The notes beneath the pieces were generated by a model that had not been told where the DNA came from, did not search any database, and saw only the letters and a program-made list of their open reading frames with translations. The position numbers and the translations under genes are program-made. This document shows, one piece after another, positions 6,251 to 63,905 of a DNA stretch of 64,000 bases. Origin of the DNA: a plasmid; the sequence record NZ_CP082221.1; one strand, written 5' to 3'. Numbering within the stretch: position 1 is the first letter of the stretch; every line of letters starts with the position of its first letter.

Positions 6251-6330
6251 TGAAATTTAAAAAAATGCATCAAAGTGCTACAATTTTTTCATCTTTTGTT
6301 TATCCACAGCTCTTGAGGAGTGTCAAACTC

Positions 6331-8976: not shown

Positions 8977-11900
8977 ATGCTAAGTGTTAACAATGTAGTT
9001 GAATCTGGAAAGGCTTTGTCTTACTACCAATTAGATAATTATTATACTAATGAGCAACAATCATTGGATCAAACTGAATGGTATGGTCGTGGTGCTCAAG
9101 TATTAGGTATTAATGGTGAACAAATTGAGGCAAATACTTTTAAAGACTTGCTAGAAGGTAGAGTAGAAGATCAACAGTTGGGGCGAGTTAGGAAAGATGA
9201 AAATGGTCAAAGTTATATTGATCATAGAGCTGGTATAGATTTAACGTTTAGTGCTCCAAAATCTGTTTCGATAATGGCAGAGGTTTTTGAAAATCAAGAT
9301 GTGCTACAAGCACATCTTGATGCTGTTAAAGATACTATTTCCGCTATTGAAGATCATTACACGCAAACTAGAATCAGTGTTGATGGCACAATTCAAAAAT
9401 CAGAGAGTGATAATTTAGTTGTTGCTCTTTTTAATCACAATACTAGTAGAGCATTGGATCCGCAAACTCATACACATGCAGTTGTTATGAACATGACTTT
9501 AAATGATAAAGATTCATGGACGGCATTAAGTAACGAAGTAATTTATGATAATCAGGCAACCATAGGTTCGATATATAATTCTAATCTCGCTCAAAATTTA
9601 AGAGCTATAGGTCTTGATGTAGAGGTAAAAGATAATCAGGGCAATTTTGAAATTGCCGGCTTTACTCCAGAAATGATACAAGAGTTTTCTCAGCGAAGAA
9701 CTCAGATTATTGAAAGTTTAAAAAGTAGAGGAATTGATATTGAAGATGCACCTGCTAGTTTGAGAGAACAAGCAGCTTTAAAAACACGGGAAAGGAAACA
9801 GGCATTTAATGAGGCTGAATTACGTCAAGTTTGGAAGGAACGTGCAAGTGAACTTGGCATTACACAAAGTTTTGTAGATAAGCTAGAAGATAAAATTAAA
9901 ACGAATCAGATGAATGCGGATCCGCAACCTTCAGAAAAAAACCAAAAAGACATATGGAAAACCGGATCCTCAAAAAATGATCCGAATATATCATTTGAAG
10001 GGAAAACGGAAGTTTCTAGCGATAAATCTAATAACGCTGATAAAGAAGCACCAGATAAACGAATTGACAACTCTGAAACGCAAAATCCGAGCGATAGCGC
10101 CATATCAAATGAAAAAGCTAGTCAAGTATCAGGAAAATCCCAAAAAGAGCCAGAAACGCAAAATATGGGCCAAGAAGCGCATATTCAAGATGAAGTTAGA
10201 TTGGGTAAGAAACAAACTGAACCTAAAGCGAGTAACAATTCAAAAGACCAGACTGTACCTAGAGAACGACCTTATCAAAGAAAGAATCGTGAATCTCAAC
10301 AAGTACTCATAAGCCAAAAAACAAAAGAAGCCGTTTACTACGCTATAGGGCATCACACCGAAAGAGAAATGATGATACCTGAAACAAAGATACTAAATAC
10401 GGCTATGAAATTTGACATACAAGAAGTAACTCATGAACAAGTACGAGCTGAGTTAAATAGACTAGAAAAAGAAAAAATCATCGTCCGGGTAGATGGGAAG
10501 TTAACAACTCAGCGTTTGGCACATAGCGAAGTTTGGTCGTTACAACATATACAAAATGAACAAAAAAGCGTGAGTCCAATAGTGGATGAATCTCAAGTTA
10601 AAACAAGACTCGATCAAGAGGAACAGTTGAGAGGGAGGAAGTTTACACCCGGACAAAGAGCAAGTCTTGAAACAATATTTAGTTCTGAAAGTAGATATAT
10701 AGGCGTAGACGGTTTAGCTGGTACGGGTAAAACTACAATGCTGCATACTTTGAATAAAGTAGCCTCAGAAAACGGTTTTATTGTTAAAGGTATGGCCGCC
10801 ACTGGCGTAGCTGCTAAAAACTTAGAATTGGAAACTGGTATACCCTCAAAAACAATGGCCATGTTTCAGATTAAAGAAAATGAGCTTCAGAAAGAAATTG
10901 AAAAGAATGGGGGAGTAAACCGTAAAAATGAAATCTGGATAGTTGATGAATCTTCATTTGTAAGCCAGACAAACTTCAAAGACATTTTGACTTTGGCTAA
11001 GCAAGCTAATAGTCGTGTTGTTTTTTTAGGGGATAAATTGCAGCTTCAGTCAATTAGTGCAGGAAAACCATTTGAACTTGTACAAAATAGAGGTGTGCTA
11101 AAAACTTCACAAATGCATGACATTATCCGTCAAAAAAACCAGGAACTTAAAGACGTGGTTTCTGTTGTCGTTGCAAAAAACAAAGAAGGTAAAATTGATT
11201 TAAGTAACAACGATAAAGCTTTTGATTTACTTGATAAACAGCAAAGGATTCATGAAGTAGTTGTAGCTGCAAAGGGTACACAACCAGCTCTACATGAGCA
11301 GCATGACTTATTTCAGGAAATTCATGAAGTACATCAAAAATTAGTTGGTGATTATATGAGGCTTAATAAGGAATCAAGAGATAATAGCCTTATCATTACT
11401 CCCTTTAACTCAGATAGAGTAATGCTGAACTCACTTGTAAGAAGCGAAATGAAAAAACTAAATGAATTAGATCATAATGATCATAATTTTGAGATCTTAG
11501 TAAATACCAATTTCACTGAAGCGGAGCGTAAACATATTAATAATTATGAGCCTAATATGACGATACGTTTTGGGAAATCATTTACAGATAAAGACACAGG
11601 AATCAAAATTGAAAAAGGTGACTATCTAAAAGTAATGATGAAAGACAAAGAAGGTAAATTGGTATTAATTGATAAGGATAAAAATAAAATTAAATGGAAC
11701 CCTAAAAAAGGAAGTGTAGAAGTATATAAATCAGAACAAAGAAAGATAGCTAAGGGAGATGTAATAAGAATTACCCGGACAAAAGATGATGAACAGATCA
11801 AGAATGGTGAAAGATATAAAATCAAGGATATTCATGAAGATAAAGTAATAGTAGAAGGCCAGGATGGGAAAGAGAAAAGCCTATCAAGAAGTGGGTTTAA

Positions 11901-12252
11901 ACATTTTGATTACGGCTATAGTAGTACTGTTTATTCCTCTCAGGGCTTAACACAGGGTAATGTATTTTTGTTACTAAATAGCCAAAAATTAGCAAATGAT
12001 CTGAAAAGTGATAAGGCTGCCACCAAAGTTTTAGGTAATACATTTGGAACAAGATCATTTTATGTTGCTGTAACGAGGGAAGAGCATAATTTGCAGATTT
12101 ACACTGATAATAAACAAATGACACGAGAAGCAATTACGTTTAAACAAGATAAAACAAGTTATTTGGATACAGTTAAAGAAGTTGGTCAAAAAGTACCAGA
12201 ACATATCATCGAAAATGAAAAAATTGGTGTAACTAATGAGCTAGAAAGATAG
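8977..12252 (+). CDS. traI: MOBF relaxase-helicase (TrwC/TraI family)
   Basis: N-terminal relaxase with HTHAVVMN histidine triad; ~150-aa low-complexity linker; C-terminal helicase with Walker A GLAGTGKTT. Confidence 0.9.
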   Translation: MLSVNNVVESGKALSYYQLDNYYTNEQQSLDQTEWYGRGAQVLGINGEQIEANTFKDLLEGRVEDQQLGRVRKDENGQSYIDHRAGIDLTFSAPKSVSIMAEVFENQDVLQAHLDAVKDTISAIEDHYTQTRISVDGTIQKSESDNLVVALFNHNTSRALDPQTHTHAVVMNMTLNDKDSWTALSNEVIYDNQATIGSIYNSNLAQNLRAIGLDVEVKDNQGNFEIAGFTPEMIQEFSQRRTQIIESLKSRGIDIEDAPASLREQAALKTRERKQAFNEAELRQVWKERASELGITQSFVDKLEDKIKTNQMNADPQPSEKNQKDIWKTGSSKNDPNISFEGKTEVSSDKSNNADKEAPDKRIDNSETQNPSDSAISNEKASQVSGKSQKEPETQNMGQEAHIQDEVRLGKKQTEPKASNNSKDQTVPRERPYQRKNRESQQVLISQKTKEAVYYAIGHHTEREMMIPETKILNTAMKFDIQEVTHEQVRAELNRLEKEKIIVRVDGKLTTQRLAHSEVWSLQHIQNEQKSVSPIVDESQVKTRLDQEEQLRGRKFTPGQRASLETIFSSESRYIGVDGLAGTGKTTMLHTLNKVASENGFIVKGMAATGVAAKNLELETGIPSKTMAMFQIKENELQKEIEKNGGVNRKNEIWIVDESSFVSQTNFKDILTLAKQANSRVVFLGDKLQLQSISAGKPFELVQNRGVLKTSQMHDIIRQKNQELKDVVSVVVAKNKEGKIDLSNNDKAFDLLDKQQRIHEVVVAAKGTQPALHEQHDLFQEIHEVHQKLVGDYMRLNKESRDNSLIITPFNSDRVMLNSLVRSEMKKLNELDHNDHNFEILVNTNFTEAERKHINNYEPNMTIRFGKSFTDKDTGIKIEKGDYLKVMMKDKEGKLVLIDKDKNKIKWNPKKGSVEVYKSEQRKIAKGDVIRITRTKDDEQIKNGERYKIKDIHEDKVIVEGQDGKEKSLSRSGFKHFDYGYSSTVYSSQGLTQGNVFLLLNSQKLANDLKSDKAATKVLGNTFGTRSFYVAVTREEHNLQIYTDNKQMTREAITFKQDKTSYLDTVKEVGQKVPEHIIENEKIGVTNELER
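9913..9928. repeat. palindrome family member inside traI
   Basis: atgcggatccgcaacc; encodes NADPQ in the traI linker. Confidence 0.8.
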
Positions 12253-12821: not shown

Positions 12822-13150
12822 TTAAATTTTCCATAAATGCGAGGCTTCTTGGTCTACTTTGTCAATATCTAAATGGAATTGCCACTCACCATACAATTGA
12901 CGCCAGCAACAATAATTAAGAAAGCTATCATCGCGCTTAATCATCCATTCAGCCCATTGAACTTCAAGAATATCGAAAGAATAAGAGCCAAATGCAGAAC
13001 CTATAGCTAAATCGCCCCAATGTGCTATCTCAGGATAAAGATATCTAAGAGTTGTAATGTCCTTTCGATCATCATCATTCCACTCACCGGGATCAGAGCC
13101 GTGGCCTGGTGTCACAAAAGTTTCAGGGTTAAAAATAAAATTAGGCATAT
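12822..13150 (-). CDS. hypothetical protein
   Basis: ORF; likely start MPNFIF with SD ggag 7 nt upstream. Confidence 0.35.
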
Positions 13151-13185
13151 TAAATCTCCAAGCAATCAATTATTTGAAAGGAAAA

Positions 13186-13812
13186 TTAGAATAATCCCTT
13201 AACAAAATTGAGAACGAGCATACCTAAAGTTAATGAAGCGATACTGAAGACAAAATTGAAAATCCCTTTCTTTTTGTCATCAACAACAATTGCATTATCA
13301 GCAGAACTATCGGTAATACTAATAAAAGAATACTCTCTGAAATACTTAAAAGTGTAAGGAGTTAGAATGAAATCAATCATTAAAACTAAACAAAAAGTAC
13401 CAAAAGCACTTTTAGTATTTTCAGAAGAAAAACTTAAATTAGAGAAGGAATAAGAAAAAAATAGGATAAGAAATATAAAAATAAGATTTATAATGATTAC
13501 CCCTAGCTCTTTAAAAGGAAACTGATTAAGACCTTTGGAATATTTTAATAAACCAAAAAGATAAAAACTTTTTCCAAAAGACTGAGCGTTAAGGTAGCAT
13601 AAGAAAAAGATTAAAACTTCTGGCTTGGGGATAAAATTTATATAATAAGCTAAAACAGCAAAGAAAATAAAAACCAAATTTAAAATAAAAGGTTGTACTG
13701 CTCCAAATAAAGTTAAAAAAACTTTAGAGGTCGAATCAAGTTTAGTGTTCATAGATAAATCCTTGTTAAATAGAGAAATAGAATTTAGGGCTTTAAAGCA
13801 AAAACAAAGCAA
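13186..13812 (-). CDS. polytopic membrane protein, hypothetical
   Basis: 208 aa, about 5 hydrophobic helices. Confidence 0.45.
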   Translation of the reverse strand: MLCFCFKALNSISLFNKDLSMNTKLDSTSKVFLTLFGAVQPFILNLVFIFFAVLAYYINFIPKPEVLIFFLCYLNAQSFGKSFYLFGLLKYSKGLNQFPFKELGVIIINLIFIFLILFFSYSFSNLSFSSENTKSAFGTFCLVLMIDFILTPYTFKYFREYSFISITDSSADNAIVVDDKKKGIFNFVFSIASLTLGMLVLNFVKGLF

Positions 13813-13967
13813 TTTGTATTAAGGATAAGTCCAGTGAAAATAAATGCTTGACCAATACCAATATGTCGTCCTTTTCTTATGATAAGGATTCCAAGAATTA
13901 TAATCGCATTGGCGGCAATACATAAAACAGTTGTAAGTTCATTAAATCTAAGATGCATATAATTCAC
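13785..13967 (-). CDS. small membrane protein
   Basis: 60 aa, 2 TM; hairpin-SD module (revcomp gagctgaagagcttaagg) upstream on minus strand. Confidence 0.4.
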   Translation of the reverse strand: MNYMHLRFNELTTVLCIAANAIIILGILIIRKGRHIGIGQAFIFTGLILNTNCFVFALKP

Positions 13968-13995
13968 CTTAAGCTCTTCAGCTCGTATGTTGAAA

Positions 13996-14274
13996 CTATC
14001 CGTATTTTCTTTTTACAACAGAATTGTAAAAATTAATGAGGATATGGATTAAAGAAAAAATTGTAAATAGAATTAAAAATATGATACTTGCTATTTTATT
14101 AATAGAAAGTGTGGTTGTAAAAAAAACTAATGAAGCTTTAATTCCTATTCCACACATTAAACTTAAACCAATTAAAGAAGTATCAAATTCTTCAAAGTCA
14201 TCCTTAAAAAGAAAACTCAGTGATTGCAACAATAAAAAACTTGAAAGATATAGAGTAAGTGTAAAACTATCCAT
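13996..14274 (-). CDS. small membrane protein
   Basis: 92 aa hydrophobic. Confidence 0.35.
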   Translation of the reverse strand: MDSFTLTLYLSSFLLLQSLSFLFKDDFEEFDTSLIGLSLMCGIGIKASLVFFTTTLSINKIASIIFLILFTIFSLIHILINFYNSVVKRKYG

Positions 14275-14288
14275 TGTAATAACCTTCT

Positions 14289-14750
14289 TTATTTACAAGA
14301 GTTTTTAATGGCAAATGATTTAATTACTTCTGATCTTTCGTTGTATTTTTTTGCGAGTGATCCATATTCTGATAGTGTATAACTTCCTTTTACAAATACA
14401 GAATTCAGGATTGGATCATTTACAGTTCTAACTGTTGGTAAAGCAATATCTAAAGCCTGTTGATATGGTTTCATAGCATTATTCAAATGATATGGAAATG
14501 ATAAAAAGCCTATAGTAGTTCCTATAAAAAGAGATAAGGCAATTATATTAATATTTAAGTTTACAAATTTAAAAGTTAGCAATTTTAGTGCTATCAAACT
14601 AATGACTATCGACAATATCATATAACTAGCACAATTCATTGCTACATTAATAGATGTTGGATTCAAAAATGAAGTGTCTGTATTAGGAAGCGTAATAAGA
14701 CAATTGTTAATTAAGTCTAGTGGTTGCAATAATTCCATGTTTAACTCCAT
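14289..14750 (-). CDS. membrane protein, hypothetical
   Basis: 153 aa, TM segments; module revcomp gagctgaaaagcttatggag upstream. Confidence 0.45.
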   Translation of the reverse strand: MELNMELLQPLDLINNCLITLPNTDTSFLNPTSINVAMNCASYMILSIVISLIALKLLTFKFVNLNINIIALSLFIGTTIGFLSFPYHLNNAMKPYQQALDIALPTVRTVNDPILNSVFVKGSYTLSEYGSLAKKYNERSEVIKSFAIKNSCK

Positions 14751-14963
14751 AAGCTTTTCAGCTCTAAAATTTTGGTATTGGTTAATTAATTTGTAATATT
14801 GAAGGCGGAAAATTGGATTGAATTAACATAAATGATAATGCTAACACCGCTGCAAGACATGGTGTCACATGATTATTAAATCTATGGATAAATAATATAT
14901 GCCAGCCCATTAAAATTGAAATTCCTGTTAAATAGAATAATGGACCAATTTATTAACCCTCTC

Positions 14964-15161
14964 TTACTGATTAAATTTAATTGAAAAACCAATGCCATTT
15001 ATACTCAGAAATAGACCGATAATTAAAGTCATATGGCCTACATTTTGAACCCATAAATCATTTTGATACTTTTTAGATTTGTACCAATACAAACCTACCA
15101 AAATAAATAGTACACCTAATGCTGTAATAATTAGCGTAATTAAACTAAATTTAAACCCCAT
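14964..15161 (-). CDS. small membrane protein
   Basis: 65 aa, 2 TM; module variant gagctcaatagcttaagg upstream. Confidence 0.4.
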   Translation of the reverse strand: MGFKFSLITLIITALGVLFILVGLYWYKSKKYQNDLWVQNVGHMTLIIGLFLSINGIGFSIKFNQ

Positions 15162-15303
15162 AGTATATCTCCTTAAGCTATTGAGCTCATTCTTTAAAAA
15201 TCTAGGTTAAGTATCTACAAAATTCAAGAAAAAGTAAATGTAATAATACCGAATTGTATTATTTATTTGATTCAATAACATCTCTTGAACCATTTTTAAT
15301 CTG

Positions 15304-15963
15304 TTACTCCTTTTTATCATTAGTGATATTGTTAGCTTCACCGATACGTTCTCTTGCTTCTAAGATCTTTGATTCCTGTATCGTCTCAAATTCCATATCT
15401 TTGAATCTTTTATAAAAATGTTCTATGAATAAAAATTCATAGTCAAAATAGGATATATACCCTCTTTCTTTCATGATCTTTTCGATTGGTTTTTTTAAAG
15501 GGAGATTATAATTATCTTTCAGATACAATACCTTTTTATACATATCTTCATTGATTTCCTTTTCAATGAGAGCTGAACATCGCTCATAATCTGAAAGTAA
15601 TACTAAGTTAATATACATTGGTCTAGATAATTTAAATTCTTTTTCTTTTGAAGAATAAAAAACTTTTCTTAAAATTATTTCTGTTATTTTTTTATTTAAA
15701 TAGTAATTAATAATGATCGATACAAGTCCGCTAATTGCTATCATAAATGCAGTATCAACATTATTAGATTTTTCATGACTAACTAAACCAACTAACCATA
15801 GGGAACCACCGATTAAAGCAATTATGGATAAAAATATGGCTATAATTGAGAAAGTATCCCATTTTTTCATGAGTCCTAGTTTGGATTTCTTAAGCAGATC
15901 GTCTTTTTGATAAACATCGAATATATCGATTACATCATGCATGTAGATATTTTCATGGATCAT
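15304..15963 (-). CDS. membrane-anchored hypothetical protein
   Basis: 219 aa; 2 TM then soluble domain; module gagctgaaaagcttatggag upstream. Confidence 0.45.
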   Translation of the reverse strand: MIHENIYMHDVIDIFDVYQKDDLLKKSKLGLMKKWDTFSIIAIFLSIIALIGGSLWLVGLVSHEKSNNVDTAFMIAISGLVSIIINYYLNKKITEIILRKVFYSSKEKEFKLSRPMYINLVLLSDYERCSALIEKEINEDMYKKVLYLKDNYNLPLKKPIEKIMKERGYISYFDYEFLFIEHFYKRFKDMEFETIQESKILEARERIGEANNITNDKKE

Positions 15964-16219
15964 TTTTTGTACTCCATAAGCTTTTCAGCTCATTCATAAA
16001 GTTTTATGATGTTATATTGAATCAATATAATTTAATATGTATATTTGGTCAATATAACTCAGCAAGGTTGGCTAGGCCATTTTAGATGCTTAAAATTCTA
16101 TTTTAACCATATATAATTCTGAGGTCTTTTTAACTATACCCAAAAAAGCCATATTGATAGTAAATATGGCAATTATAGTTACCCATGATATTTGTTTATA
16201 AATGTAGGAGTCTGATCTG

Positions 16220-16858
16220 TTGAATAACGTAGCTCGTATTTACATGCGTGTCAGTACAGAGAAACAAGATCTTGAGCGACAAGAGAAGGTGATAAATGAT
16301 GCGCGAAATGCTGGTTATTATATTGCAGCAGTCTATAGGGAAAAAGCTTCAGGTATTACACCTGATCGTCCAGAACTTAATAGGATGATACATGACCTTC
16401 AAGCCGGTGAAGTAGTTATTGCAGAGCGAATTGACCGTATTAGTAGATTACCATTACCTGAAGCCGAGAAGTTAATTGTTGCAATTAAAGAAAAAGGTGC
16501 AAAACTTTCAATACCCGGTGTAATTGATTTATCTGAATTTTCAAAAGATGCTAGTGGAATTTCTAAAATTGTATTAGATCAAGTACAAGACATGTTGCTA
16601 AAAATTGCATTGCAAATGGCACATGAAGATTATTTGTTAATTAAAAAAAGAAGGGAAGAGGGAATTGAACTTCGAAAAAATAAAGGTCTTTACAATGGTA
16701 GAAAAGCTGACAAAAAACTTCACGATAAAATTGTAGAGTTAAGAAAGCAGAATATTAGTATTTCAAAAACGGCATTAATAGCAAATTGTAGTGTTTCTTT
16801 AGTTAAGCTAGTTTGGAAGAGATATAGCGAATCAAATTCATCTCAAGCTTTAAAGTAA
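16220..16858 (+). CDS. serine recombinase (resolvase/invertase family)
   Basis: IYMRVSTEKQDLERQ catalytic Ser motif, C-terminal HTH; AT-rich palindromes upstream (16010-16200) as candidate res site. Confidence 0.8.
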   Translation: MNNVARIYMRVSTEKQDLERQEKVINDARNAGYYIAAVYREKASGITPDRPELNRMIHDLQAGEVVIAERIDRISRLPLPEAEKLIVAIKEKGAKLSIPGVIDLSEFSKDASGISKIVLDQVQDMLLKIALQMAHEDYLLIKKRREEGIELRKNKGLYNGRKADKKLHDKIVELRKQNISISKTALIANCSVSLVKLVWKRYSESNSSQALK

Positions 16859-44924: not shown

Positions 44925-46118
44925 GTGTGTCCAAATTGTACAATGGGCATACTTATGACTGTAAACTTTGTTAATTTAAATTCTAAAAAAGACTTTATAA
45001 TCAATAGATTATATGAAAACCTACCAAAAAAACCTTACTGTACCAGTGACTTCTTCGGATTAAAGATTCGTGACAAGAAACAAGCTATACGTCACTCACA
45101 TATACAAATTAATCATCCGAATTTTAAAAGATATATAGTTATTGATGCTGATTATCCAGGCGCAGCAACAGCTTGGCGGTATGATTTTGATGACAATATT
45201 CCAGTACCAAATTTAATTGTAGTTAATCCAGAAAATACTCATTGCCATTTTTACTATGAACTTGAAGCTCCAGTAAGTTTTACTGAAAGTTCCAGCAAGA
45301 GAGCTCAAGAATTTTATAATTCAGTTTCTAAAAAGCTCACTGAAGTATTAAAAGGTGACAGCAAGTACGTGGGACTAATAGCAAAGAATCCTGCACATGA
45401 AAAATGGATTGTAGAAGTACCACGATTAGAAAAGTATTCATTGCATGAACTTGTTGAACATTTAGAACTTAAGCCACATGAATACAGAAATATAAATTCA
45501 GAAAAACCCGGTATAGAGAAATTTGTAATTAACGGCCGTAATGATCATCTATTTAACGAAATACGGCATCAAGCATATATCGACATTAGAAGTTATAGAA
45601 GTAAAACATTTGTTGAGTGGTTTGATCATGTAAAAAGCTTATTAATAAATGCAAATAAGAATTTTAGCGTTCCGCTACCATATTCAGAAGTTTGTGCTAC
45701 AGCAAAATCAATCGCAAAATATTGTTGGAAAAAAGATAGCTACTGCTTTCAAGAGTTTTGTGAAAGGCAACATATTAAAGCAAAGAAAGGTGGACGTGCA
45801 AAATCCGATAAATATGTTGAAATGAGGCGCACGGCTGCGCGTTTATTGCGTTCTGGTAAAACTAAAACCTATATATCAGAATTACTTCAAGTATCGTACA
45901 GAAGCGTTCTCCGTTGGCTTCAAGGCATAAAAGTACAAGCTGCAATAATGCATTTATCAGAATTAAAAAAGTTATGTGACAATGCCCAAAATCAGATATT
46001 AGCCTGCTTCATTGCTTCTTTAATCGTTATTATTTTAGATGAGCACATTTATGATTTTAATGAATCTGAAGAATTAAAAATTACCATCAAATTCAAATTA
46101 AAAGTTCCAATTCAATAA
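44925..46118 (+). CDS. rep: replication initiator, Replicase/PriCT-type (primase-like Rep)
   Basis: GRNDHLFN matches the RN..LF signature of the replicase family; C-terminal HTH; perfect 9-bp hairpin (44762-44787) about 140 bp upstream; alternative starts at 44943 and 44955. Confidence 0.55.
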   Translation: MCPNCTMGILMTVNFVNLNSKKDFIINRLYENLPKKPYCTSDFFGLKIRDKKQAIRHSHIQINHPNFKRYIVIDADYPGAATAWRYDFDDNIPVPNLIVVNPENTHCHFYYELEAPVSFTESSSKRAQEFYNSVSKKLTEVLKGDSKYVGLIAKNPAHEKWIVEVPRLEKYSLHELVEHLELKPHEYRNINSEKPGIEKFVINGRNDHLFNEIRHQAYIDIRSYRSKTFVEWFDHVKSLLINANKNFSVPLPYSEVCATAKSIAKYCWKKDSYCFQEFCERQHIKAKKGGRAKSDKYVEMRRTAARLLRSGKTKTYISELLQVSYRSVLRWLQGIKVQAAIMHLSELKKLCDNAQNQILACFIASLIVIILDEHIYDFNESEELKITIKFKLKVPIQ

Positions 46119-49722: not shown

Positions 49723-49848
49723 TATTTTTTTTGTTTAAATATACAGAACCGTCTGTTAGTATAGCTAAATAATAAACAGTTTGTTTTAAGTATGTTTTAG
49801 TAGTATAATCTACGCAATTAATGAGCAGAAATGCTTAAGGAGTTCAAG

Positions 49849-54304: not shown

Positions 54305-54349
54305 AGTATTCGTCGTTAGAAAACAATTATTATGACATTATTTCAATGA

Positions 54350-55231
<882 letters not shown>

Positions 55232-55335
55232 GAGCTTGACAGAAACTCTAATTTTATAAAAAGCCCATTTGAGATAAATGGGCCTTTTATAATCTGACTA
55301 ATAATGAAACCTGTTAATTTTTCTAGTTTAAAATT

Positions 55336-55977
55336 TTACAGTGCTTTTAGTTGTTGTGATCCAATCCAGTGTTTAGAGAACTGATAGGCGGCACGTCCTG
55401 ACCGTTGACCACGTGCCTGACACCAGCGTAGGGCTTCAGCATGGGCTTCGTCATTCATTGGCATATCTGTTTTAGCAAGATAGTGTTCTACAATGGTTAA
55501 ATACAGGTTTTGATCCATTGGATAGAATGAAAGCCACATTCCAAAACGATCCGAGAGTGAAATTTTTTCCTCAATGGCTTCTTGTGGATGCAACTCGGTA
55601 TATTGCGGTACATCTACACGAGTCACTGGCGTGTTCTCATGCATAAATTCTGGTAACAGATGTCGACGGTTGCTGGTTGCATAAATAATAAAATTACTTG
55701 TACCTGACTGTAATGAGCCATCAAGTACACTTTTTAAGCTGCGATAGTTTTCATCTTCAGCATTAAAGGCCAGATCATCGCAGTAGACAATGAACTTTTC
55801 CGGACGCTTCTGGATGAGCTTCTGGATTTCAGGAAGATCGGACAGATCATCACGTTCAATTTCAATTAAACGTAATCCTTGATCTTTATACTCGGTTAAA
55901 AGGGCACGGACAATTGAAGATTTTCCTGTGCCGCGTGAACCAGTAAGGAGAACATCATTGGCTGGCAGATTCTGCAA
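55336..55977 (-). CDS. AAA-type ATPase (Tn2006)
   Basis: Walker A GSRGTGKS; Tn2006 context. Confidence 0.75.
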   Translation of the reverse strand: MQNLPANDVLLTGSRGTGKSSIVRALLTEYKDQGLRLIEIERDDLSDLPEIQKLIQKRPEKFIVYCDDLAFNAEDENYRSLKSVLDGSLQSGTSNFIIYATSNRRHLLPEFMHENTPVTRVDVPQYTELHPQEAIEEKISLSDRFGMWLSFYPMDQNLYLTIVEHYLAKTDMPMNDEAHAEALRWCQARGQRSGRAAYQFSKHWIGSQQLKAL

Positions 55978-56450
55978 AAATTGTCGTGTATTTTGACTAA
56001 TGTATTATTAAATACATGATCTTCAAGCTCTTCAAAAGCAAATCTTAGTGTGGCATGTGTACATACTAAAATTTGATCTGTACCTTCCATAAAGTGTTTA
56101 AAGGCTTTTACTTTGCTTTTATCGCCACCAGCAGTACATAAGTTGTTTTCAGGTTTGATATCCCAATCTGCAAAAAAGCCACTTTCGCTTAGTTTTGTGC
56201 TAGCAAATGAACCGCCAATTGAGCGTTCAGGTACAGCTACAATAACTTTGCTTAACCCTTGGTTGTGTATCTTGTCTAAACCCAAAAACATTAATGCACG
56301 AGATTTACCTGATGCAGGAGGGGCTTTTAAGAGCAAATACTGACTATTACGAGATTCGAAGGCGCGAGCTTGCATAGCTCGCATCCCCATATTATTAACT
56401 GAGGTGCTTTCTCCAGTTTGTTGATAATTTACTTCTACTAAATTTTTCAT
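55896..56450 (-). CDS. DEAD/DEAH helicase N-terminal fragment (Tn2006)
   Basis: Walker A APPASGKS; truncated. Confidence 0.65.
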   Translation of the reverse strand: MKNLVEVNYQQTGESTSVNNMGMRAMQARAFESRNSQYLLLKAPPASGKSRALMFLGLDKIHNQGLSKVIVAVPERSIGGSFASTKLSESGFFADWDIKPENNLCTAGGDKSKVKAFKHFMEGTDQILVCTHATLRFAFEELEDHVFNNTLVKIHDNFCRICQPMMFSLLVHAAQENLQLSVPF

Positions 56451-56457
56451 TTTTATC

Positions 56458-56850
56458 TCAATTTAACATTGTTTCGTAGTAGTGGAATAATCGCTCTAGA
56501 CGCTCTTCATCTGTCTTAAAATCACTTGATTTATATAGTTTTTCCACTAACGAATCATTCTCTTTATGAGCTTGTTTTAAGTCAAAAGGCATTTTTTCAG
56601 GATCATAAAGTTGAGCCAAACTTAAATGTGAATAGGATTCACGTACAGCTAGTATTTTAAAAGCAGATTCATTTAACTTAAATATCGATGCTTTCATGAG
56701 CTTTGGCACAGGAAAAGTGTTATAGCAAATTGCTGAAGTGTAACGAATACGTTCCTCTAACTTTCCTGCAATAGTTTTAACCCAAACCATGTGCATTTTC
56801 GATTGAAGCAATGCAAATACCTCTGTACACGACAAAAATAGATAACTCAT
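56458..56850 (-). pseudogene. yeeA-like methyltransferase fragment (Tn2006)
   Basis: 130-aa C-terminal fragment abutting the ISAba1 IR. Confidence 0.5.
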
Positions 56851-56891
56851 TGAAATAATGTCATAATAATTGTTTTCTAACGACGAATACT

Positions 56892-57461
56892 ATGACACAT
56901 CTCAATGAGTTATATCTTATCTTAAACAAATCTCTAAAATGGAACAAGTCACATTTAAAGTGCTTTGCGCTCATCATGCTTGTGATTATTTTAAAGCAAA
57001 CATGTAATCTTTCTTCTGCATCTAAAGCCTTGCCCATCAAGTGCTTACCACAATCATTTTATCGACGTATGCAGCGCTTCTTTGCAGGTCAGTATTTTGA
57101 TTATCGTCAAATTTCTCAGTTGATTTTCAATATGTTTTCATTCGACCAAGTGCAACTGACTTTAGATAGAACCAATTGGAAATGGGGAAAACGAAATATT
57201 AATATCCTGATGCTCGCAATCGTTTATCGTGGAATAGCGATACCTATCCTTTGGACATTGCTTAATAAACGTGGAAATTCAGATACGAAAGAGCGCATTG
57301 CTTTGATTCAACGCTTTATAGCCATTTTTGGTAAAGACCGTATTGTGAATGTGTTCGCAGACAGAGAGTTTATCGGTGAGCAGTGGTTTACATGGTTAAT
57401 TGAACAAGACATCAACTTCTGCATTCGTGTTAAAAAAACTTCATTGTCACCAATCATTTAG
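56892..57461 (+). CDS. ISAba1 transposase OrfA
   Basis: 189 aa. Confidence 0.85.
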   Translation: MTHLNELYLILNKSLKWNKSHLKCFALIMLVIILKQTCNLSSASKALPIKCLPQSFYRRMQRFFAGQYFDYRQISQLIFNMFSFDQVQLTLDRTNWKWGKRNINILMLAIVYRGIAIPILWTLLNKRGNSDTKERIALIQRFIAIFGKDRIVNVFADREFIGEQWFTWLIEQDINFCIRVKKTSLSPII

Positions 57462-57535
57462 GAAAGAATCATAAAATTAGTGATTTATTTCGCCATCTTA
57501 AAGTTGGTCAAATTGAATGTCGTAAACGACGGATT

Positions 57536-57982
57536 TTGGTTGGTCGGGTGAAACTATATATAAGTGCACTACAGTTAGAAAATGGAGAGCTTTTACTCGT
57601 CGTTTCTCCTCAGTTTAATGCCAATGCTATTCAGGATTATGCATTACGCTGGGAAATTGAAACCTTATTCAGTTGTCTCAAAGGACGCGGGTTTAATCTT
57701 GAAAATACGCGCTTGACAGACCCTAGACGAGTGAAAAAATTGATTGCGGTGTTAGCTATAAGCTTCTGTTGGTGTTACTTAACGGGTGAATGGCAACATG
57801 ATCAAAAAAAAGCGATAAAAATAAAGAAGCATGGACGACTCTCAATGAGTTTATTTCGCTATGGTTTAGACTATGTTCAAATGGCGATTCAGCGTTTAAT
57901 TGGTTTTGGGAAAAAAGAAGAGTTTAAGGAAATTTTGGCAATTTTAAGAAGGCAGAATCCTGATAGGATAAGGGTTCTGTGA
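57536..57982 (+). CDS. ISAba1 transposase OrfB portion
   Basis: 148 aa. Confidence 0.8.
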   Translation: MVGRVKLYISALQLENGELLLVVSPQFNANAIQDYALRWEIETLFSCLKGRGFNLENTRLTDPRRVKKLIAVLAISFCWCYLTGEWQHDQKKAIKIKKHGRLSMSLFRYGLDYVQMAIQRLIGFGKKEEFKEILAILRRQNPDRIRVL

Positions 57983-58460: not shown

Positions 58461-58544
58461 GCTATTTAATTAGAAAGGTTTTTATTGTTAAGAAGATTTA
58501 GTAAATCTTATCTCAACTGAGCAGAAATGCTTAAGGAGCCAAAA

Positions 58545-59234
58545 ATGGAAGATATGCAAACTATCATAGATAAAATTAGTAAGTGTCTAGCATTATCAAA
58601 AAGTGCCAATGAGCATGAAGCAGCCGTTGCACTTAAGCAAGCACAGACATTGATGCAGAAGTACAAAATAAGTGAAAAACAGATACTAATTAGTGATATT
58701 AAAGAGCGAATTATTCAGACAAAAACTCAAAGAACTAAAGATATTGAAAGACGGCTTAAAGTAATGATCGCAAATGTCTTTGAATGCGGAAGTTACTCAG
58801 GTTTTTACACTTTAGAAGGTGTGAAATATCAACAACATGTTTTTTATGGAGTTGAACCAAATGTGTCTATTGCAACATATGCATATAATGTTTTACTCCC
58901 TATTTTGATTAAAAATAAACAAAGTTATTTAGCCACTTTACATGGAAATACTAAACTTAAATCTAAGAGACGTTTAGGCATAAGCTATCATAGAGGGTGG
59001 ATACTTGGAGTTGAAAAAAAGTGTAGGAACTTAAATCCAGATAAAGAGCTAAAGGAAAAACTGAGCGAATATGAGAAAACTCTTAATCTTATATATTGCG
59101 AAGTTAAAAGTGTTAAACATTATAATAAAGATATGCTTAATCAAGCACGAGTAAAAGGGTATTCGGACGGGAGTAAGGTGAACTTACATCATGCTATTGA
59201 TCCTAATGAAACGAAAAAGATTTTCTTGAGCTGA
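58545..59234 (+). CDS. hypothetical protein
   Basis: module gagcagaaatgcttaaggag upstream. Confidence 0.5.
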   Translation: MEDMQTIIDKISKCLALSKSANEHEAAVALKQAQTLMQKYKISEKQILISDIKERIIQTKTQRTKDIERRLKVMIANVFECGSYSGFYTLEGVKYQQHVFYGVEPNVSIATYAYNVLLPILIKNKQSYLATLHGNTKLKSKRRLGISYHRGWILGVEKKCRNLNPDKELKEKLSEYEKTLNLIYCEVKSVKHYNKDMLNQARVKGYSDGSKVNLHHAIDPNETKKIFLS

Positions 59235-59238
59235 TTGA

Positions 59239-59475
59239 ATGAGTAATGCTGATCCTCAACTTGAGCATGTTGATCCAGCTCATCCTGTTGCACCAGATGC
59301 TTATATTAGAGTTCTGAACTGTAAGAGTAATTATGTAAATATATTGGCTGGATGGTTTCTAAAAGATGGCGAGAAGAAGTTTTATATCGCAGAAGTAAGA
59401 GGCAATGACGTTGAAGCTGGTTTTAACAGGCTTGATTGGTTGACAGAGTTTGACACAATTTATAAGGGCAAATAG
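59239..59475 (+). CDS. hypothetical small protein
   Basis: 78 aa ORF, 4 nt after upstream stop. Confidence 0.4.
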   Translation: MSNADPQLEHVDPAHPVAPDAYIRVLNCKSNYVNILAGWFLKDGEKKFYIAEVRGNDVEAGFNRLDWLTEFDTIYKGK

Positions 59476-59480
59476 GTTTT

Positions 59481-59687
59481 CTATTTGTCCTTACTTTTTT
59501 TATTCTTTTTACGGTTTTCAATAGTTTGTTGAACATCTTCAAAGCTAATCGTATTTATATACCTTTGAACTAATGTTTCAACAATATCTGAAGTTTTAAC
59601 CATTTGACGTTGCTCTTGTTGCATATCTAATGCGGTATCCATAACAAGTTGAGCTGTTGGATCCCGGAGACGTACTGTAGATCCCAT
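59481..59687 (-). CDS. hypothetical small protein (possible RHH regulator)
   Basis: 68 aa ORF with N-terminal beta-strand-like MGSTVRLRDP and a basic tail. Confidence 0.35.
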   Translation of the reverse strand: MGSTVRLRDPTAQLVMDTALDMQQEQRQMVKTSDIVETLVQRYINTISFEDVQQTIENRKKNKKSKDK

Positions 59688-59833
59688 AACAAATCCTCCT
59701 TTCAGTAATTTATTATATGTGATTTATTTAATTTATATACAAAAAATATTACAAGTTTAATTTTGTTTTTGATCATATTTGTTAATTCTAGCCATGTTTT
59801 ATTTCTTTGGTAGTTAGGCTACCTTGTTTCTAT

Positions 59834-60193
59834 AAAATTGAATCTAGGAGCAAATAGAGCGATTTAGAGGGCTATTTGTCGCAACCCTGCGGGATTGCTT
59901 TGTTATTACCGGATAAGGTCCAATGGGAGAAGTTTCACTTCTTCGGTCGTCTAGTCAAAATCACAGATTTTGACTGACTCGCTCGAAGTTTGAAACGGTA
60001 ATCAAGGAGGGGGATGCTCGCAAATTTCATCAGTTCGCAACGTGGACACGTTGCTCTGCAAATGTATTTTATAATACGAAAAATTACACTAAATATATGT
60101 TTTTTCTTAATAAAAAGACATGAAAATGTAGTATAATTGAGGGGTGAAATCGGGTAGGCTGGTTTCTATATATGAGCTGAAAAGCTTAAGGTG
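59834..60193 (+). repeat. structured ~360-bp repeat, copy 2
   Basis: about 97 percent identical to 3063-3424, including the tagtataat box and hairpin-SD module. Confidence 0.75.
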
Positions 60194-60199
60194 AATTGA

Positions 60200-61291
60200 A
60201 TGAAAAATAATGCTTTATATAAAGAGCTTGATAGACATGATGATGTGAATGTTATTCCTAATGTATTAAAAAATGCTATAGGACAGGCACTTGCATCTGA
60301 AGGTAAGTTGTTCTCTGTCTCAGAAATAGATTTAGATATTTATGATTTAATTATCGTCAGTATGAGTGGCGGAAAAGATAGTATTGCTTCTTTGCTCTAT
60401 TTAATAGAGAAAGGCGTGGACATGTCAAAGGTTGAATTGTGGCATAACCTTGTTGACGGTAAGAGTGAGCCGTTTATGGATTGGCTGTTTATGGATAGCT
60501 ACAACAAACAGCTTGCCAAAGCATTTAATTTACCAATTTATAATAGCTGGTTAATGCATGGCTTCGAGGGGGAGATGCTAAAAAATAATTCCATAAGCCA
60601 TGAATATGAGATTGAAACACCGAGTGGGAATATCATTATTCCAAGAAAACGAGCAAAAGCTGGAACGAGATTGCGGTTTCCTCAACAATCAGCAGATCTC
60701 CGTATTAGATGGTGTTCTTCAGCTCTGAAGATCGAGGTAGGGCGTAGAGCTTTATCAAACCAGGAGCGTTTTAATAACTCTAAAGTTTTATTTGTTACTG
60801 GAGAGCGTCGAGAAGAAAGTCCTAATCGAGCAAAATACTTCCAATTAGAAACACATTTTTGTGATAATCGTAATGGGAAAAAAGGTCGTCTAATTGATGC
60901 ATATCGACCAGTTCTTGATTTTACAGAACGTCAAGTGTGGGAAATTTTAGAGCGTCATAATGTCGCAGCGCCAGTACCATATCGCTTAGGATGGTCGAGA
61001 TCAAGCTGTATGACTTGTATCTATAATAGCCCGAAAGTTTGGGCAACCATCAAACATTATTTTCCCAATCGTATTGATCGAATTTTTAAATACGAAGAAC
61101 AATTTGCAACTACAATTAGTCGAAAAAAAATCAATGTCATAAATATAAGTGAGGGTATTCAGCCTTTTAATATCAATGATTTAGTAGCTTTGGATCAGGC
61201 AATGAGAAAAGAATATACCTTGCCTATATTTACAAAAAACTGGGAGCTACCTATGGGGGCCTTTAATAAAGAGGGATGCGGTTCAGATTAA
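60200..61291 (+). CDS. PAPS reductase / PP-loop ATP pyrophosphatase family protein
   Basis: SGGKDS PP-loop, GERREES motif, C-terminal CxxC. Confidence 0.7.
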   Translation: MKNNALYKELDRHDDVNVIPNVLKNAIGQALASEGKLFSVSEIDLDIYDLIIVSMSGGKDSIASLLYLIEKGVDMSKVELWHNLVDGKSEPFMDWLFMDSYNKQLAKAFNLPIYNSWLMHGFEGEMLKNNSISHEYEIETPSGNIIIPRKRAKAGTRLRFPQQSADLRIRWCSSALKIEVGRRALSNQERFNNSKVLFVTGERREESPNRAKYFQLETHFCDNRNGKKGRLIDAYRPVLDFTERQVWEILERHNVAAPVPYRLGWSRSSCMTCIYNSPKVWATIKHYFPNRIDRIFKYEEQFATTISRKKINVINISEGIQPFNINDLVALDQAMRKEYTLPIFTKNWELPMGAFNKEGCGSD

Positions 61292-61348
61292 AAATTATAA
61301 AAGGCTAAAACAATTGAGATTCGAGCAGAAATGCTTAAGGTGAAATTA

Positions 61349-62122
61349 ATGAAATCATATTATCAAATTAGCTTTAGTGGTGGACGTACTTCAGCATATT
61401 TAACCTGGTACTTGCTTAATAACTATAGCCACCTTTATAACTTTATAGTCACATTTGCAAATACAGGCATTGAGCATGAGAAAACTTTAGAGTTTGTCGA
61501 TAAATGTGATAAATATTTTAATTTCAATACAGTTTGGTTAGAAGCAGTTATTCACCCTAAAAAAAGAGTAGGTACGACGCATAAAGTTGTCAATTTTAAG
61601 ACAGCTACCAGGGGGCCAGTACTTTTTGAACAGATGATTGAGAAATACGGAATTCCTAATAAAGTTTATAAGCATTGCACCCGTGAATTAAAAATAAGAC
61701 CAATGGATTCATATATTCGTAGTATTGGGATGAAACCTAAAGATATCCCTACTGCAATCGGTATCCGGGCTGATGAATCTAAACGTTGTGCTAAGGATGC
61801 AGAAGCAAATAACTTTATTTATCCATTAGTCACAGAACATCCAGTGGATAAGCAATTCATATTAGATTGGTGGTCAAAGCAAGCGTTTGATCTAGAGCTA
61901 AATGAATGGGATGGAAATTGTAATATGTGTTTTGAGAAATCATTTCCAAAATTATTGAAGCAGCTTGAATCAAATCCGTTTGCTTTAGAGTTTCATTTAC
62001 GAATGGAAAGGATCCACGGGCAAACTAACAATCAACCAGGCAGGCCTGATAGAGTTTTTTTTCGTCAAAATACTTCAGCAATTGATATCTTAAATATGTT
62101 TAACCAAGCGAATGTAGCTTAG
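61349..62122 (+). CDS. second PAPS reductase-family protein
   Basis: SGGRTS PP-loop, GIRADESKR motif; ATG 61349 follows module gagcagaaatgcttaaggtg. Confidence 0.65.
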   Translation: MKSYYQISFSGGRTSAYLTWYLLNNYSHLYNFIVTFANTGIEHEKTLEFVDKCDKYFNFNTVWLEAVIHPKKRVGTTHKVVNFKTATRGPVLFEQMIEKYGIPNKVYKHCTRELKIRPMDSYIRSIGMKPKDIPTAIGIRADESKRCAKDAEANNFIYPLVTEHPVDKQFILDWWSKQAFDLELNEWDGNCNMCFEKSFPKLLKQLESNPFALEFHLRMERIHGQTNNQPGRPDRVFFRQNTSAIDILNMFNQANVA

Positions 62123-62239
62123 ACATGTGTTATGTGATTTTTAAAGTAGGTGTAGGTAAGTATATCTATCCCTAACACACTAGAATATTAAAAAATGCTG
62201 TCAGTTCCATTAATTAACTAGAGTGGATGAACCTAAAAT

Positions 62240-62442
62240 CAATTAGATTCGCAATTTAGAAGCGCAACCCTGCGGGATTGCTTTGTTACTCCCGGATAAG
62301 CTCCAATGGGAGAAGTTTCACTTCTTCGGTCGTCTAGTCAAAATCACAGATTTTGACTGACTCGCTCGAAGTTTGAAACGGTAATCAAGTAGGGAGATGC
62401 TCGCAAATTCCTTCAGTTCGCAACGTGGACACGTTGCTCTGT
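62240..62442 (+). repeat. structured repeat, partial and diverged copy 3
   Basis: retains the gcaaccctgcgggattgc, agtcaaaatcacagattttgact and gcaacgtggacacgttgc hairpins. Confidence 0.65.
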
Positions 62443-62602
62443 TAGTAATGTTTAATTCGAAAATATATTTCATTAAATTAATGTTTTTTAACAATATTAA
62501 CGTTTAAAGATCTTGATTAAAATACATCATTGTATTACAATTTTGGTTAGAAATCGGATAGGCTGATTTCGTATTTTGAGCTGAAAAGCTTATGGTGAAA
62601 AA

Positions 62603-63100
62603 ATGAATAATTATTTTAATGTATTAATCATAACTGATTTAAAAATTGGTCGTTTAAAGACTCCATCACATTGTGCATGTGCTGTTGGCCATATTGATAT
62701 TATGAAGCCATCTTTTGAATACAATACTGGCTTAGTTGCCTTATCTACTACTATGTATGATTGTAAGGACTTTAATGTTTATACATTAAGTACAAAAGAG
62801 TCATTTAATAAGTTTATTTCAACATTAAAAGTTCTTGAAGAATTGATTGGTATTCCTTGTCCTTTCTTAACCGCTATTCAAGAAACATATGAGTTCTATG
62901 GTGACTTCATTTTTGAATGTTTGACCTGGTTTAATAATAACGCAGATATATTATTCAGACCTGACCACTTGGGAGAATTCACTAAAACAGCAGATGAGTC
63001 TCTTAATTTCCAATTAATGTATTTCAAAGTCTTAGAAACTTTTCGTAAAGCCGGTTTAAATGGTTTTATACAATTCAATACATTGAAAACTATTAATTGA
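62603..63100 (+). CDS. hypothetical protein
   Basis: module with gaaatcggataggctgatttc hairpin upstream. Confidence 0.5.
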   Translation: MNNYFNVLIITDLKIGRLKTPSHCACAVGHIDIMKPSFEYNTGLVALSTTMYDCKDFNVYTLSTKESFNKFISTLKVLEELIGIPCPFLTAIQETYEFYGDFIFECLTWFNNNADILFRPDHLGEFTKTADESLNFQLMYFKVLETFRKAGLNGFIQFNTLKTIN

Positions 63101-63128: not shown

Positions 63129-63905
63129 GTGAATTCAAAAGTTAACATTGGTAAAACTTATAGTGTTTTGAAAAGTGAGTTTATACATACCTTAAAAAGT
63201 ATCGACCAATCTAAAAACATTTATGAAATATTTCATGACTTTGTTTTTTGTTCAGCAGCAGCATTAAGAAACTCAATTGGTCATAGATATCAAAATTTGT
63301 TTAACCACAATATTGAAAATGAATATCTTCAACGTATCAATCGTTACGACGTTAGTGGACGTTTAAAAATAAAAAAATTGTTTTATCTGTTGGTGGATTT
63401 ATGCGAAGCAAAGGGTGAGCCATATGATGTGTTAGGTAGCATTTACATGGAATTAGAAATTGGGAATGATCATATCGGCCAATATTTTACACCAAGTGAG
63501 GTATCAAATTTATGTGCTCAAGTTGTAATGACCGACCTTAAAAAACAACTTGAGGAAGAGGGGGTGATTTCGATTTCCGATCCAGCTTGTGGAGCTGGCT
63601 CAACTTTACTTTCAACTGTAAAACTCTGTTTGGAATCTAAGATACAAGTGCAAGATCACTTGTATATTGAGGCAGCAGACATTGATAGAAACGTTGCTTT
63701 AATGTGTTATATACAACTAAGTTTGTGGGCAGTGCCTTGCCGTATTTTTGTTGGTGATACCCTCAAGTTAAAGTATCGTGAATGCTGGTGTAGCTTAATG
63801 TATTACGTAAAAGGGTGGGACATAAAATTGCATAGTCAAAAATTAAAGGAAATTGTACATAAAGCTGAAGATTATGTGCCTAATTTCATTTTAATTAATG
63901 ATTGA
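63129..63905 (+). CDS. N6-adenine methyltransferase-like protein (HsdM-type N-terminal half, lacks NPPF/Y)
   Basis: GQYFTP and DPACGAGSTLLS (motif I) present; ORF stops at ..VPNFILIND right where the NPPF catalytic motif is expected; GTG start after the hairpin-SD module. Confidence 0.5.
   Translation: MNSKVNIGKTYSVLKSEFIHTLKSIDQSKNIYEIFHDFVFCSAAALRNSIGHRYQNLFNHNIENEYLQRINRYDVSGRLKIKKLFYLLVDLCEAKGEPYDVLGSIYMELEIGNDHIGQYFTPSEVSNLCAQVVMTDLKKQLEEEGVISISDPACGAGSTLLSTVKLCLESKIQVQDHLYIEAADIDRNVALMCYIQLSLWAVPCRIFVGDTLKLKYRECWCSLMYYVKGWDIKLHSQKLKEIVHKAEDYVPNFILIND

Follow-up and report, generated by a model that had tools for sequence, protein, structure and literature searches.

Two adjoining PAPS-reductase-family genes of an Acinetobacter resistance plasmid are separate cassettes with a plausible role in evading host defences

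Why does a conjugative resistance plasmid carry two PAPS-reductase-family genes side by side, and do the two work together? We addressed this question for an Acinetobacter resistance plasmid (NZ_CP082221.1), of which a stretch of 64,000 nucleotides (nt), hereafter the window, was analysed. The genes in question are two adjoining plus-strand open reading frames (ORFs), ORF1 (60200-61291; 363 amino acids, aa) and ORF2 (61331-62122; 263 aa). An initial annotation had proposed that they form a pair, expressed immediately on entry into a recipient, that could modify incoming DNA and so evade restriction. We found that ORF1 and ORF2 are separate gene cassettes and not a two-part system. We tentatively favour the view that they encode stand-alone PP-loop enzymes, probably iron-sulfur proteins, whose action on nucleic acid would benefit the incoming element and which would be interchangeable with orphan methyltransferases.

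Both ORFs were borne out, with one adjustment. RefSeq starts ORF2 at 61349 (257 aa, end 62122), and the ATG at 61349 lies 6 nt past a copy of a leader/Shine-Dalgarno motif at 61322-61342; the true start is therefore probably 61349, giving a protein of 257 aa (263 aa if read from 61331). The motifs first described can be read in the translations, namely SGGKDS and GERREES in ORF1 and SGGRTS and RADES in ORF2. A CxxC motif that had been singled out as a C-terminal feature of ORF1 is present (C270xxC273), but it is not C-terminal and it is not special to ORF1, as ORF2 has C191xxC194.

Assignment of both proteins to the PAPS-reductase (PP-loop) family, as originally proposed, is near certain. Each has an N-terminal PP-loop (SGGxD/TS) and an adenine-nucleotide alpha-hydrolase fold, and the folds of both resemble adenosine 5'-phosphosulfate (APS) and 3'-phosphoadenosine 5'-phosphosulfate (PAPS) reductases. 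Both exceed the gathering cut-off (22.5 bits) of the Pfam model PF01507 (PAPS_reduct), with 37.0 bits for ORF1 (E = 4e-9) and 36.7 bits for ORF2 (E = 6e-9), and both match PHROG 424 'PAPS reductase' (E = 3e-30 and 1.5e-45, respectively). Among the PADLOC defence models, the top matches were BrxP (3e-13), SspD (1e-9) and DndC (4e-8) for ORF1 and SspD (8e-15) for ORF2. These matches were confined to the PAPS domain (positions 216-348 of 779 in BrxP and 4-174 of 277 in SspD). The DndC equivalog model TIGR03183 gave 32.6 bits for ORF1 and 18.9 bits for ORF2, against a cut-off of 290.4.

Judged by these profile scores, both proteins stand closer to BrxP, SspD and DndC than they do to CysH, with all scores far under the equivalog cut-offs. 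In the DndC-, CysH- or QueC-like sorting suggested at the outset, the proteins are members of none of the DndC, SspD and BrxP families, nor QueC-like, nor CysH equivalogs. Membership of DndC, SspD or BrxP was ruled out by the scores together with the missing partner genes. A QueC or 7-deazaguanine pathway found no support in the Pfam scan or in the structure comparison, and identity as a CysH equivalog was rejected on the family-model cut-offs.

Those cut-offs also bear on the possibility that the proteins are true APS/PAPS reductases acting as auxiliary host sulfur metabolism. This is the usual reading of phage 'cysH' annotations, and other authors interpret phage PAPS reductases as sulfur-metabolism genes. 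We consider it improbable here. Against CysH-type NCBIfam models with cut-offs of 154-254 bits, ORF1 reached 16-26 bits (17.8 against 165 for TIGR00434, 16.2 against 254 for TIGR02057, 25.6 against 235 for TIGR02055 and 24.0 against 154 for NF002537), while ORF2, which lacks a catalytic tail, matched none of the CysH, APS or PAPS reductase NCBIfam models. There are no sulfite reductase, thioredoxin or cys genes nearby, both families occur only in mobile elements, in establishment or replication regions, and the slot occupied by ORF1 is interchangeable with a DNA methyltransferase, as detailed below.

ORF1 and ORF2 are distant paralogues without a significant BLASTP match to one another. A profile-profile alignment nevertheless pairs RWCSSALKI with KHCTRELKI, GERREES with GIRADES and SSCMTC with GNCNMC, and the motif cysteines are invariant in 37 diverse homologues of ORF1 and 34 of ORF2. 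A PP-loop and a conserved three-cysteine layout (WC/HC ... CxxC) are retained in both proteins, as they are in the iron-sulfur enzymes DndC and APS reductase. In DndC, a PP-loop ATP pyrophosphatase, three cysteines hold a 4Fe-4S cluster (PMC10853773).

The combination of an iron-sulfur cluster with a PP-loop is also a hallmark of tRNA thiolases, and structural neighbours of the two proteins include TtuA, NcsA, TilS, MnmA and ThiI. The enzymes could accordingly be directed at RNA or nucleotides, thiolating or otherwise modifying tRNA, rRNA or a free nucleotide in the manner of TtuA, TtcA, NcsA, TilS and ThiI; the benefit might be tuned translation of an AT-rich element, evasion of anticodon nucleases or consumption of a nucleotide signal. 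The absence of a DNA-targeting partner would suit enzymes that recognise folded RNA alone. We nonetheless regard this alternative as unlikely, given that the top sequence-profile matches are DndC, SspD and BrxP and not tRNA thiolase families, that a Pfam scan of both proteins detected no THUMP, PUA or other RNA-binding domain, and that the genes around them serve DNA replication, recombination and methylation. Domain fusions were sought in unusually long homologues, where PAPS_reduct alone was present; their extra length probably comes from longest-ORF gene calls. The sole solved chain reached by sequence profile was chain C of PDB 21fy, 'PptA' (270 aa), which weakly matched residues 248-310 of the ORF1 family (E = 0.0025). 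The common segment reads ...Y.LG....C..C... and continues into the following helix.

ORF1 belongs to a family of mobile-element proteins of ~360 aa. Its features are the PP-loop S56-G-G-K-D-S, RWC172SS, GERREES, C270xxC273 and a flexible C-terminal tail with EGC360G, and the family as a whole keeps SGGKD, WH..DG, RWC172SS, GERRxES, RSSC270xxC273 and the tail GAF..EGC360G invariant. The tail is modelled with low predicted local distance difference test (pLDDT) scores and is similar to, but not identical with, the catalytic ECGLH of CysH. The family is confined to plasmids and integrative and conjugative elements. It was found in 1,467 plasmids, 1,121 of them conjugative, and homologues remain 55-60% identical across orders (Vibrio, Aeromonas, Shewanella, Pseudomonas, Halomonas and others). 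It includes an IncC backbone gene (WP_000946102.1) close to repA and mobI. The homologues in Shewanella, Aeromonas, Neopusillimonas, IncC and Pseudomonas elements are singletons. No neighbour recurred among the 119 distinct neighbours at 50 genome loci of the family; two were methyltransferases, one was a DndB, and most of the others had no Pfam match. One homologue overlaps an upstream gene with Mrr_N and N6_N4 methyltransferase domains. A search of the literature on IncC or RepAci6 genes (also under the names pACICU2 and pAb-G7-2) returned nothing functional.

ORF2, by comparison with phage proteins, belongs to the phage lambda NinC (Nin290) family. It is 32% identical to lambda Nin290 over 96% of the query (E = 4e-22), and the family comprises 518 phage records, lambda Nin290 among them. 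ORF2 carries SFSGGRTS, HC110TRELK, GIRADES and GNC191xxC194, its family-wide invariant cysteines are C53, C110, C191 and C194, and its AlphaFold2 model has a pLDDT of 94.1. Lambda NinC and most homologues end in G-x-CSESCE(V/I)(Y/F), whereas ORF2 and its Acinetobacter clade stop ~25 residues sooner and lack the G-x-CSESCE tail, of which no remnant was found in any reading frame of the window. A comparison of ORF2 with homologues at 84% and 77% identity gave a nonsynonymous rate (dN) of 0.10-0.16 and a saturated synonymous rate (dS, at least 1.7), for a dN/dS of ~0.06. The tail-less clade is therefore under purifying selection and is not decaying. The neighbours of NinC-family genes include DNA polymerase A, a PD-(D/E)XK nuclease, helicases and NinG, all of replication and recombination. 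The commonest neighbour family is C5 DNA methylase (8 of 148), with N6_N4 methylases contributing three more; as raw counts lacking a background rate, these figures make methyltransferase enrichment beside NinC-family genes only suggestive.

With the two families in hand, the proposal of a functional pair or module could be set aside. The families were never together elsewhere: in 52 ORF1-family genome loci and 80 ORF2-family viral loci (132 in total), the other family was never present within 5 kb, and 47 of the 114 Acinetobacter plasmids with ORF2 do not have ORF1. These two observations rule out a conserved two-gene system. According to junction searches, 67 plasmids have ORF1 and 24 have a C5 DNA methyltransferase in the position 5' of ORF2, which is empty in 23; the three arrangements account for all 114. 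In pAS58-3, which represents the empty arrangement, the structured repeat, promoter-like segment and full leader that stand before ORF1 in the window (described below) are fused straight to the ORF2 ATG. In pBJ83, a 505-aa C5 DNA methyltransferase precedes ORF2. In the window the ORF1 cassette is flanked on either side by a copy of the leader motif (60173-60193 and 61322-61342), which suggests that the cassette is gained or lost through recombination between leaders.

A closer partnership would be an obligate two-subunit enzyme in which ORF1 gives the cysteine tail that ORF2 is missing, similar to PP-loop heterodimers of the Ctu1/Ctu2 type. Such an enzyme would account for a tailed ORF1 next to a tail-less ORF2, for genes that adjoin across a 57-nt gap with no terminator inside, and for the few other mobile elements with two different PAPS_reduct genes close by. 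We consider it very improbable in the face of the zero co-occurrence described above, of the same tail-less ORF2 in the 47 plasmids without ORF1, and of ORF1-family singletons in IncC, Pseudomonas and Shewanella plasmids. As a separate observation, divergent PAPS-reductase paralogues side by side are recurrent at low frequency: a second, different PAPS_reduct gene (563, 261 and 248 aa) lies within two genes of an ORF1- or NinC-family gene in a few elements, namely at loci L042/L045 (714-2402), L095 (2220-3002) and L110 (3908-4651).

How, then, are the two cassettes expressed? The structured repeat noted upstream of ORF1 was confirmed. It spans ~300 nt (59829-60128, no strand assigned), its core is a long imperfect hairpin at ~59905-60005, and further copies lie at 3060-3359 (99% identical) and 62212-62511 (70%). 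As single-stranded DNA the repeat folds with -46.4 and -49.7 kcal/mol (z = -5.0 and -4.2 against shuffles). Rfam returned no family match for the repeat or for the leader. The segment that follows the repeat (60129-60199, plus strand) is promoter-like, with TATAAT at 60132-60137, and its leader contains a small hairpin, GAAATCGGGTAGGCTGGTTTC (60146-60166, plus strand), and then a hairpin with a Shine-Dalgarno motif, TGAGCTGAAAAGCTTAAGGTG (60173-60193, plus strand), located 6 nt before the ORF1 ATG. ORF1 and ORF2 are probably co-transcribed from this promoter-like segment. The ORF1 cassette is delimited downstream by a degenerate second copy of the leader/Shine-Dalgarno motif, CGAGCAGAAATGCTTAAGGTG, and the spacer that separates this copy from the ORF2 ATG (61322-61348, plus strand). 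A third copy of the repeat (70%) with a promoter-like/leader segment of its own (62212-62598, plus strand) heads the next transcription unit.

The 21-nt leader motif has 16 occurrences in the window, compared with 0 expected by chance. Twelve are on the plus strand (106-126, 942-962, 1392-1412, 3404-3424, 3752-3772, 4394-4414, 4824-4844, 49822-49842, 58518-58538, 60173-60193, 61322-61342 and 62577-62597) and four on the minus strand (13965-13985, 14745-14765, 15169-15189 and 15972-15992). In the copies examined the motif stops a few bases before a start codon, and a second hairpin, GAAATCGGATAGGCTGATTTC, precedes five copies. The motif looks like a common, plasmid-wide translation-initiation or regulatory leader. 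Two further units, 4288-4424 and 4718-4854, are 74% identical, and each consists of a terminator-like hairpin, TATAAT, two leader hairpins and an ATG. They head successive small genes beside a candidate origin of transfer (oriT), and the small leading genes appear to be built of repeated expression cassettes.

The timing of expression depends on where the genes stand relative to oriT. We located a candidate nic region on the minus strand at 5880-5945 (GCACCGTTAGGTGC-GTGGTGTGT-GAG), within the intergenic region 5760-6250, in which a hairpin (GCACC-GTTA-GGTGC) is followed by the nic-like sequence GTGGTGTGT/GAG. It lies upstream of a 183-aa ORF (6250-6801) and of TraD/TraI-type ORFs; a 108-aa minus-strand ORF (5433-5760) stands just past it. 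We take this layout to be like the hairpin-plus-nic arrangement of the MOBF oriTs of R388 and F. The candidate nic site (near 5900) is on the minus strand and ORF1 and ORF2 are on the plus strand. The minus strand would therefore be the transferred strand, entering toward decreasing coordinates, and plus-strand genes, including ORF1 and ORF2, would be read from it as template, if the nic assignment by analogy is right. Relaxase genes usually enter last, which gives the same direction of transfer.

This geometry places ORF1 and ORF2 on the leading side, but not at the first-transferred end named in the initial annotation. With the ~14 kb between window end and window start filled from the near-identical CP099785.1 and from the gene order of pMDR-CQ, the end of ORF2 lies ~21.8 kb and the start of ORF1 ~23.7 kb from the nic-like site. 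About 35 genes stand in between, including parAB and a relE/HTH toxin-antitoxin pair, so that only a position in the leading half can be maintained. The suggestion of immediate expression on entry has to be softened in the same way: the side and the orientation permit early expression, which is plausible, but at this distance an immediate onset is less than assured. The anti-defence islands of leading regions described by Samuel et al. in 2024 reportedly lie within the first ~30 ORFs. ORF1 and ORF2, at about the 35th gene, fall outside this range, although their predicted template-strand orientation agrees with that of such islands. The main text of the leading-region study makes no mention of PAPS reductases (PMC11541004).

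What might stand-alone enzymes of this kind do? PAPS-reductase-like enzymes are found in three phosphorothioate systems (DndC, SspD and BrxP), with a cysteine desulfurase as the sulfur source, and each system requires a partner NTPase (DndD, SspC or BrxC) and a DNA-recognition component. In a Vibrio phage, a PAPS-domain::Dam fusion gene and the gene beside it, transferred jointly, enabled infection of a Dnd+ host (Piel et al., 10.1101/2021.05.05.442762); this is the only experimental hint of an anti-defence role for mobile-element versions. A 2026 paper reports PAPS reductases in Aca-regulated anti-defence operons and proposes that they evade restriction-modification or phosphorothioate systems (PMC13551039). 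We tentatively prefer the reading of ORF1 and ORF2 as nucleic-acid-acting enzymes of the incoming element because they are close to DndC, SspD and BrxP, have invariant catalytic residues and occur only in mobile elements, because a C5 methyltransferase can take the ORF1 slot, and in view of the phage precedent.

Under this model, ORF1 and ORF2 would have been acquired independently, with no two-gene system involved, each as a cassette behind the conserved hairpin/Shine-Dalgarno leader in a long block of co-directional genes. Each enzyme would use ATP to adenylate a position in nucleic acid, most probably in the incoming plasmid DNA, and sulfur from a host cysteine desulfurase could be passed on via the enzyme's cysteines or an iron-sulfur cluster. 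The outcome might be a protective mark on the element or interference with modification-dependent host defences, an establishment role equal to that of the orphan DNA methyltransferases found in place of, or next to, these genes in sister plasmids and phages. A role in evading host defences is plausible. It is backed circumstantially by the C5 methyltransferase in the ORF1 slot, by methyltransferases as the commonest neighbours of NinC-family genes and by the phage PAPS::Dam fusion.

Several results weigh against this model. The plasmid annotation contains no Dnd, Ssp or BREX partner gene, and no phosphorothioate partner recurs beside ORF1- or ORF2-family homologues (a single DndB was seen among the ORF1-family loci). 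The closest solved structures are sulfonucleotide reductases and not DNA enzymes, in a compared set that contained no DndC or SspD structure. ORF2 does without the cysteine-dyad tail of its family, and the records for lambda Nin290 and for orf84 of phage 186 say no more than unknown function or non-essential. Methyltransferases are only modestly linked to the two families (2 of 119 ORF1-family and 11 of 148 ORF2-family neighbours, counted without a background control). With ~22-24 kb between the genes and oriT, expression immediately on entry is less than assured. As for a possible Frpo-like single-strand promoter, the repeat has a stable long hairpin, and by scan and inspection no sigma-70 -35/-10 pair could be placed in its stem.

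The missing partner genes have a different meaning if the proteins are non-catalytic decoys that mimic DndC, SspD or BrxP and poison or hijack host phosphorothioate defence complexes by binding their partners. Proteins without partner genes of their own, a tail-less ORF2 kept under purifying selection, and the link between a PAPS-domain gene and escape from Dnd in the Vibrio phage are all in line with such decoys. In both families, however, the PP-loop, the acidic motif and the cluster cysteines are invariant, which argues for retained catalysis, and both are far more widespread than Dnd and Ssp systems; we judge decoys to be improbable. A bolder form of the enzymatic model is that ORF1- and NinC-type proteins are unrecognised single-polypeptide modifiers that add sulfur (or an adenylyl group) to nucleic acid, mark the incoming element without the ATPase and DNA-reader partners on which Dnd, Ssp and BREX type 4 depend, and are interchangeable with orphan methyltransferases as anti-restriction cassettes. 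We hold this form to be rather unlikely; if true, it would provide a function for phage lambda NinC after four decades.

The plasmid itself has many close relatives. The 5.5 kb around ORF1 and ORF2 are 99.4-99.9% identical to ~64 Acinetobacter baumannii plasmids of 64-90 kb, and these near-identical plasmids were typed as conjugative, MOBF and MPF_F. By size and position, a 719-aa ORF (6806-8965) and a 1,091-aa ORF (8977-12252) are TraD and TraI; an F-type transfer region occupies ~17.9-37.6 kb of the window, and a run of plus-strand genes extends from the replication initiator (44925-46118) past the window end. The ORF lists also contain a 276-aa ORF at 54401-55231 and, on their evidence alone, two successive plus-strand ORFs (189 and 148 aa; 56892-57982) that resemble an insertion-sequence transposase. 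Immediately 5' of the repeat, 58527-59475 (plus strand) encodes a DUF2786/DUF7168 protein (PHROG 421, function unknown) and a 78-aa protein (PHROG 28422). A convergent 68-aa gene follows on the minus strand (59481-59687), with a bidirectional terminator-like hairpin (59463-59493) between it and the plus-strand genes. These three proteins are phage-type and are kept in every slot variant. In pMDR-CQ (NZ_CP019115.1), the segment from the DUF2786 gene through ORF1 and ORF2 is present twice in inverted orientation (13047-16624 and 54312-57889 of the record). The copies carry identical protein accessions, and they are either a real inverted duplication or an assembly artefact.

Downstream of the third repeat copy lie a 165-aa ORF without a family match (62603-63100, plus strand) and an N6-methyltransferase-like protein of 258 aa (63129-63905, plus strand) with motif I (DPACGAGS). 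The latter, an 'N-6 DNA methylase', ends before any (N/D)PP(F/Y) catalytic motif, its stop codon is followed by a terminator-like hairpin, and it matches the full length of PHROG 5696 (~250-aa phage proteins, function unknown). Instead of a methyltransferase, this gene may encode an inactive HsdM-like protein, which could for instance serve as a decoy against Type I restriction-modification.

ORF1 and ORF2 were already annotated genes and are new members of known families. New here are the NinC identity and tail loss of ORF2, the IncC-family identity of ORF1, the cassette polymorphism including the methyltransferase swap, and the corrected distance to oriT. RepAci6 plasmids spread OXA-23 carbapenem and amikacin resistance in A. 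baumannii, and IncC plasmids, whose backbone includes the ORF1 family, disseminate multidrug resistance among Gram-negative pathogens. If the enzymes aid plasmid survival on entry, they would be host-range determinants and could serve as targets for blocking transfer, and the same role would account for a class of genes that abounds in phages and is habitually mislabelled as sulfur metabolism. With their nearly identical backbones, the three slot variants are a ready-made natural comparison.

Set against known systems, ORF1 and ORF2 share with DndC, SspD and BrxP the superfamily, the PP-loop, the three-cysteine layout and the best-scoring defence models. Unlike these, they come without DndA/D/E, SspB/C or BrxC/Z/L genes and without DUF4007 or a DndC-type architecture. 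Assimilatory CysH (PDB 2goy, 6vpu and 1sur) is only 13-18% identical and its family models score below their cut-offs; unlike CysH, ORF1 has extra N- and C-terminal elements, and there is no sulfur-assimilation gene context.

The IncC (IncA/C) gene WP_000946102.1 is much closer to ORF1, with 57% identity over 97%, equal length, the same motifs and the EGCG tail, and both genes stand alone among small genes of unknown function near replication and transfer functions. The two differ in position: the IncC oriT has been mapped directly upstream of mobI (PMC5587640), and the IncC gene adjoins repA ~3.4 kb from that oriT, whereas ORF1 is ~23 kb from the candidate oriT. They differ also in constancy, ORF1 being optional in the Acinetobacter backbone (67 of 114 plasmids). 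ORF2 shares SFSGGRTS, DTG/NTG...E, HCT..LK, GIRxDE and GNCxxC with lambda NinC and PHROG 424, whose genes lie in early replication and recombination regions and are of unknown function; unlike lambda NinC, ORF2 sits on a conjugative plasmid. Finally, the Vibrio phage PAPS::Dam differs in being a fusion protein whose effect was mapped to two genes jointly (10.1101/2021.05.05.442762), but like the Acinetobacter cassettes it is a PAPS-reductase domain of a mobile element, and it is tied physically to a DNA methyltransferase.

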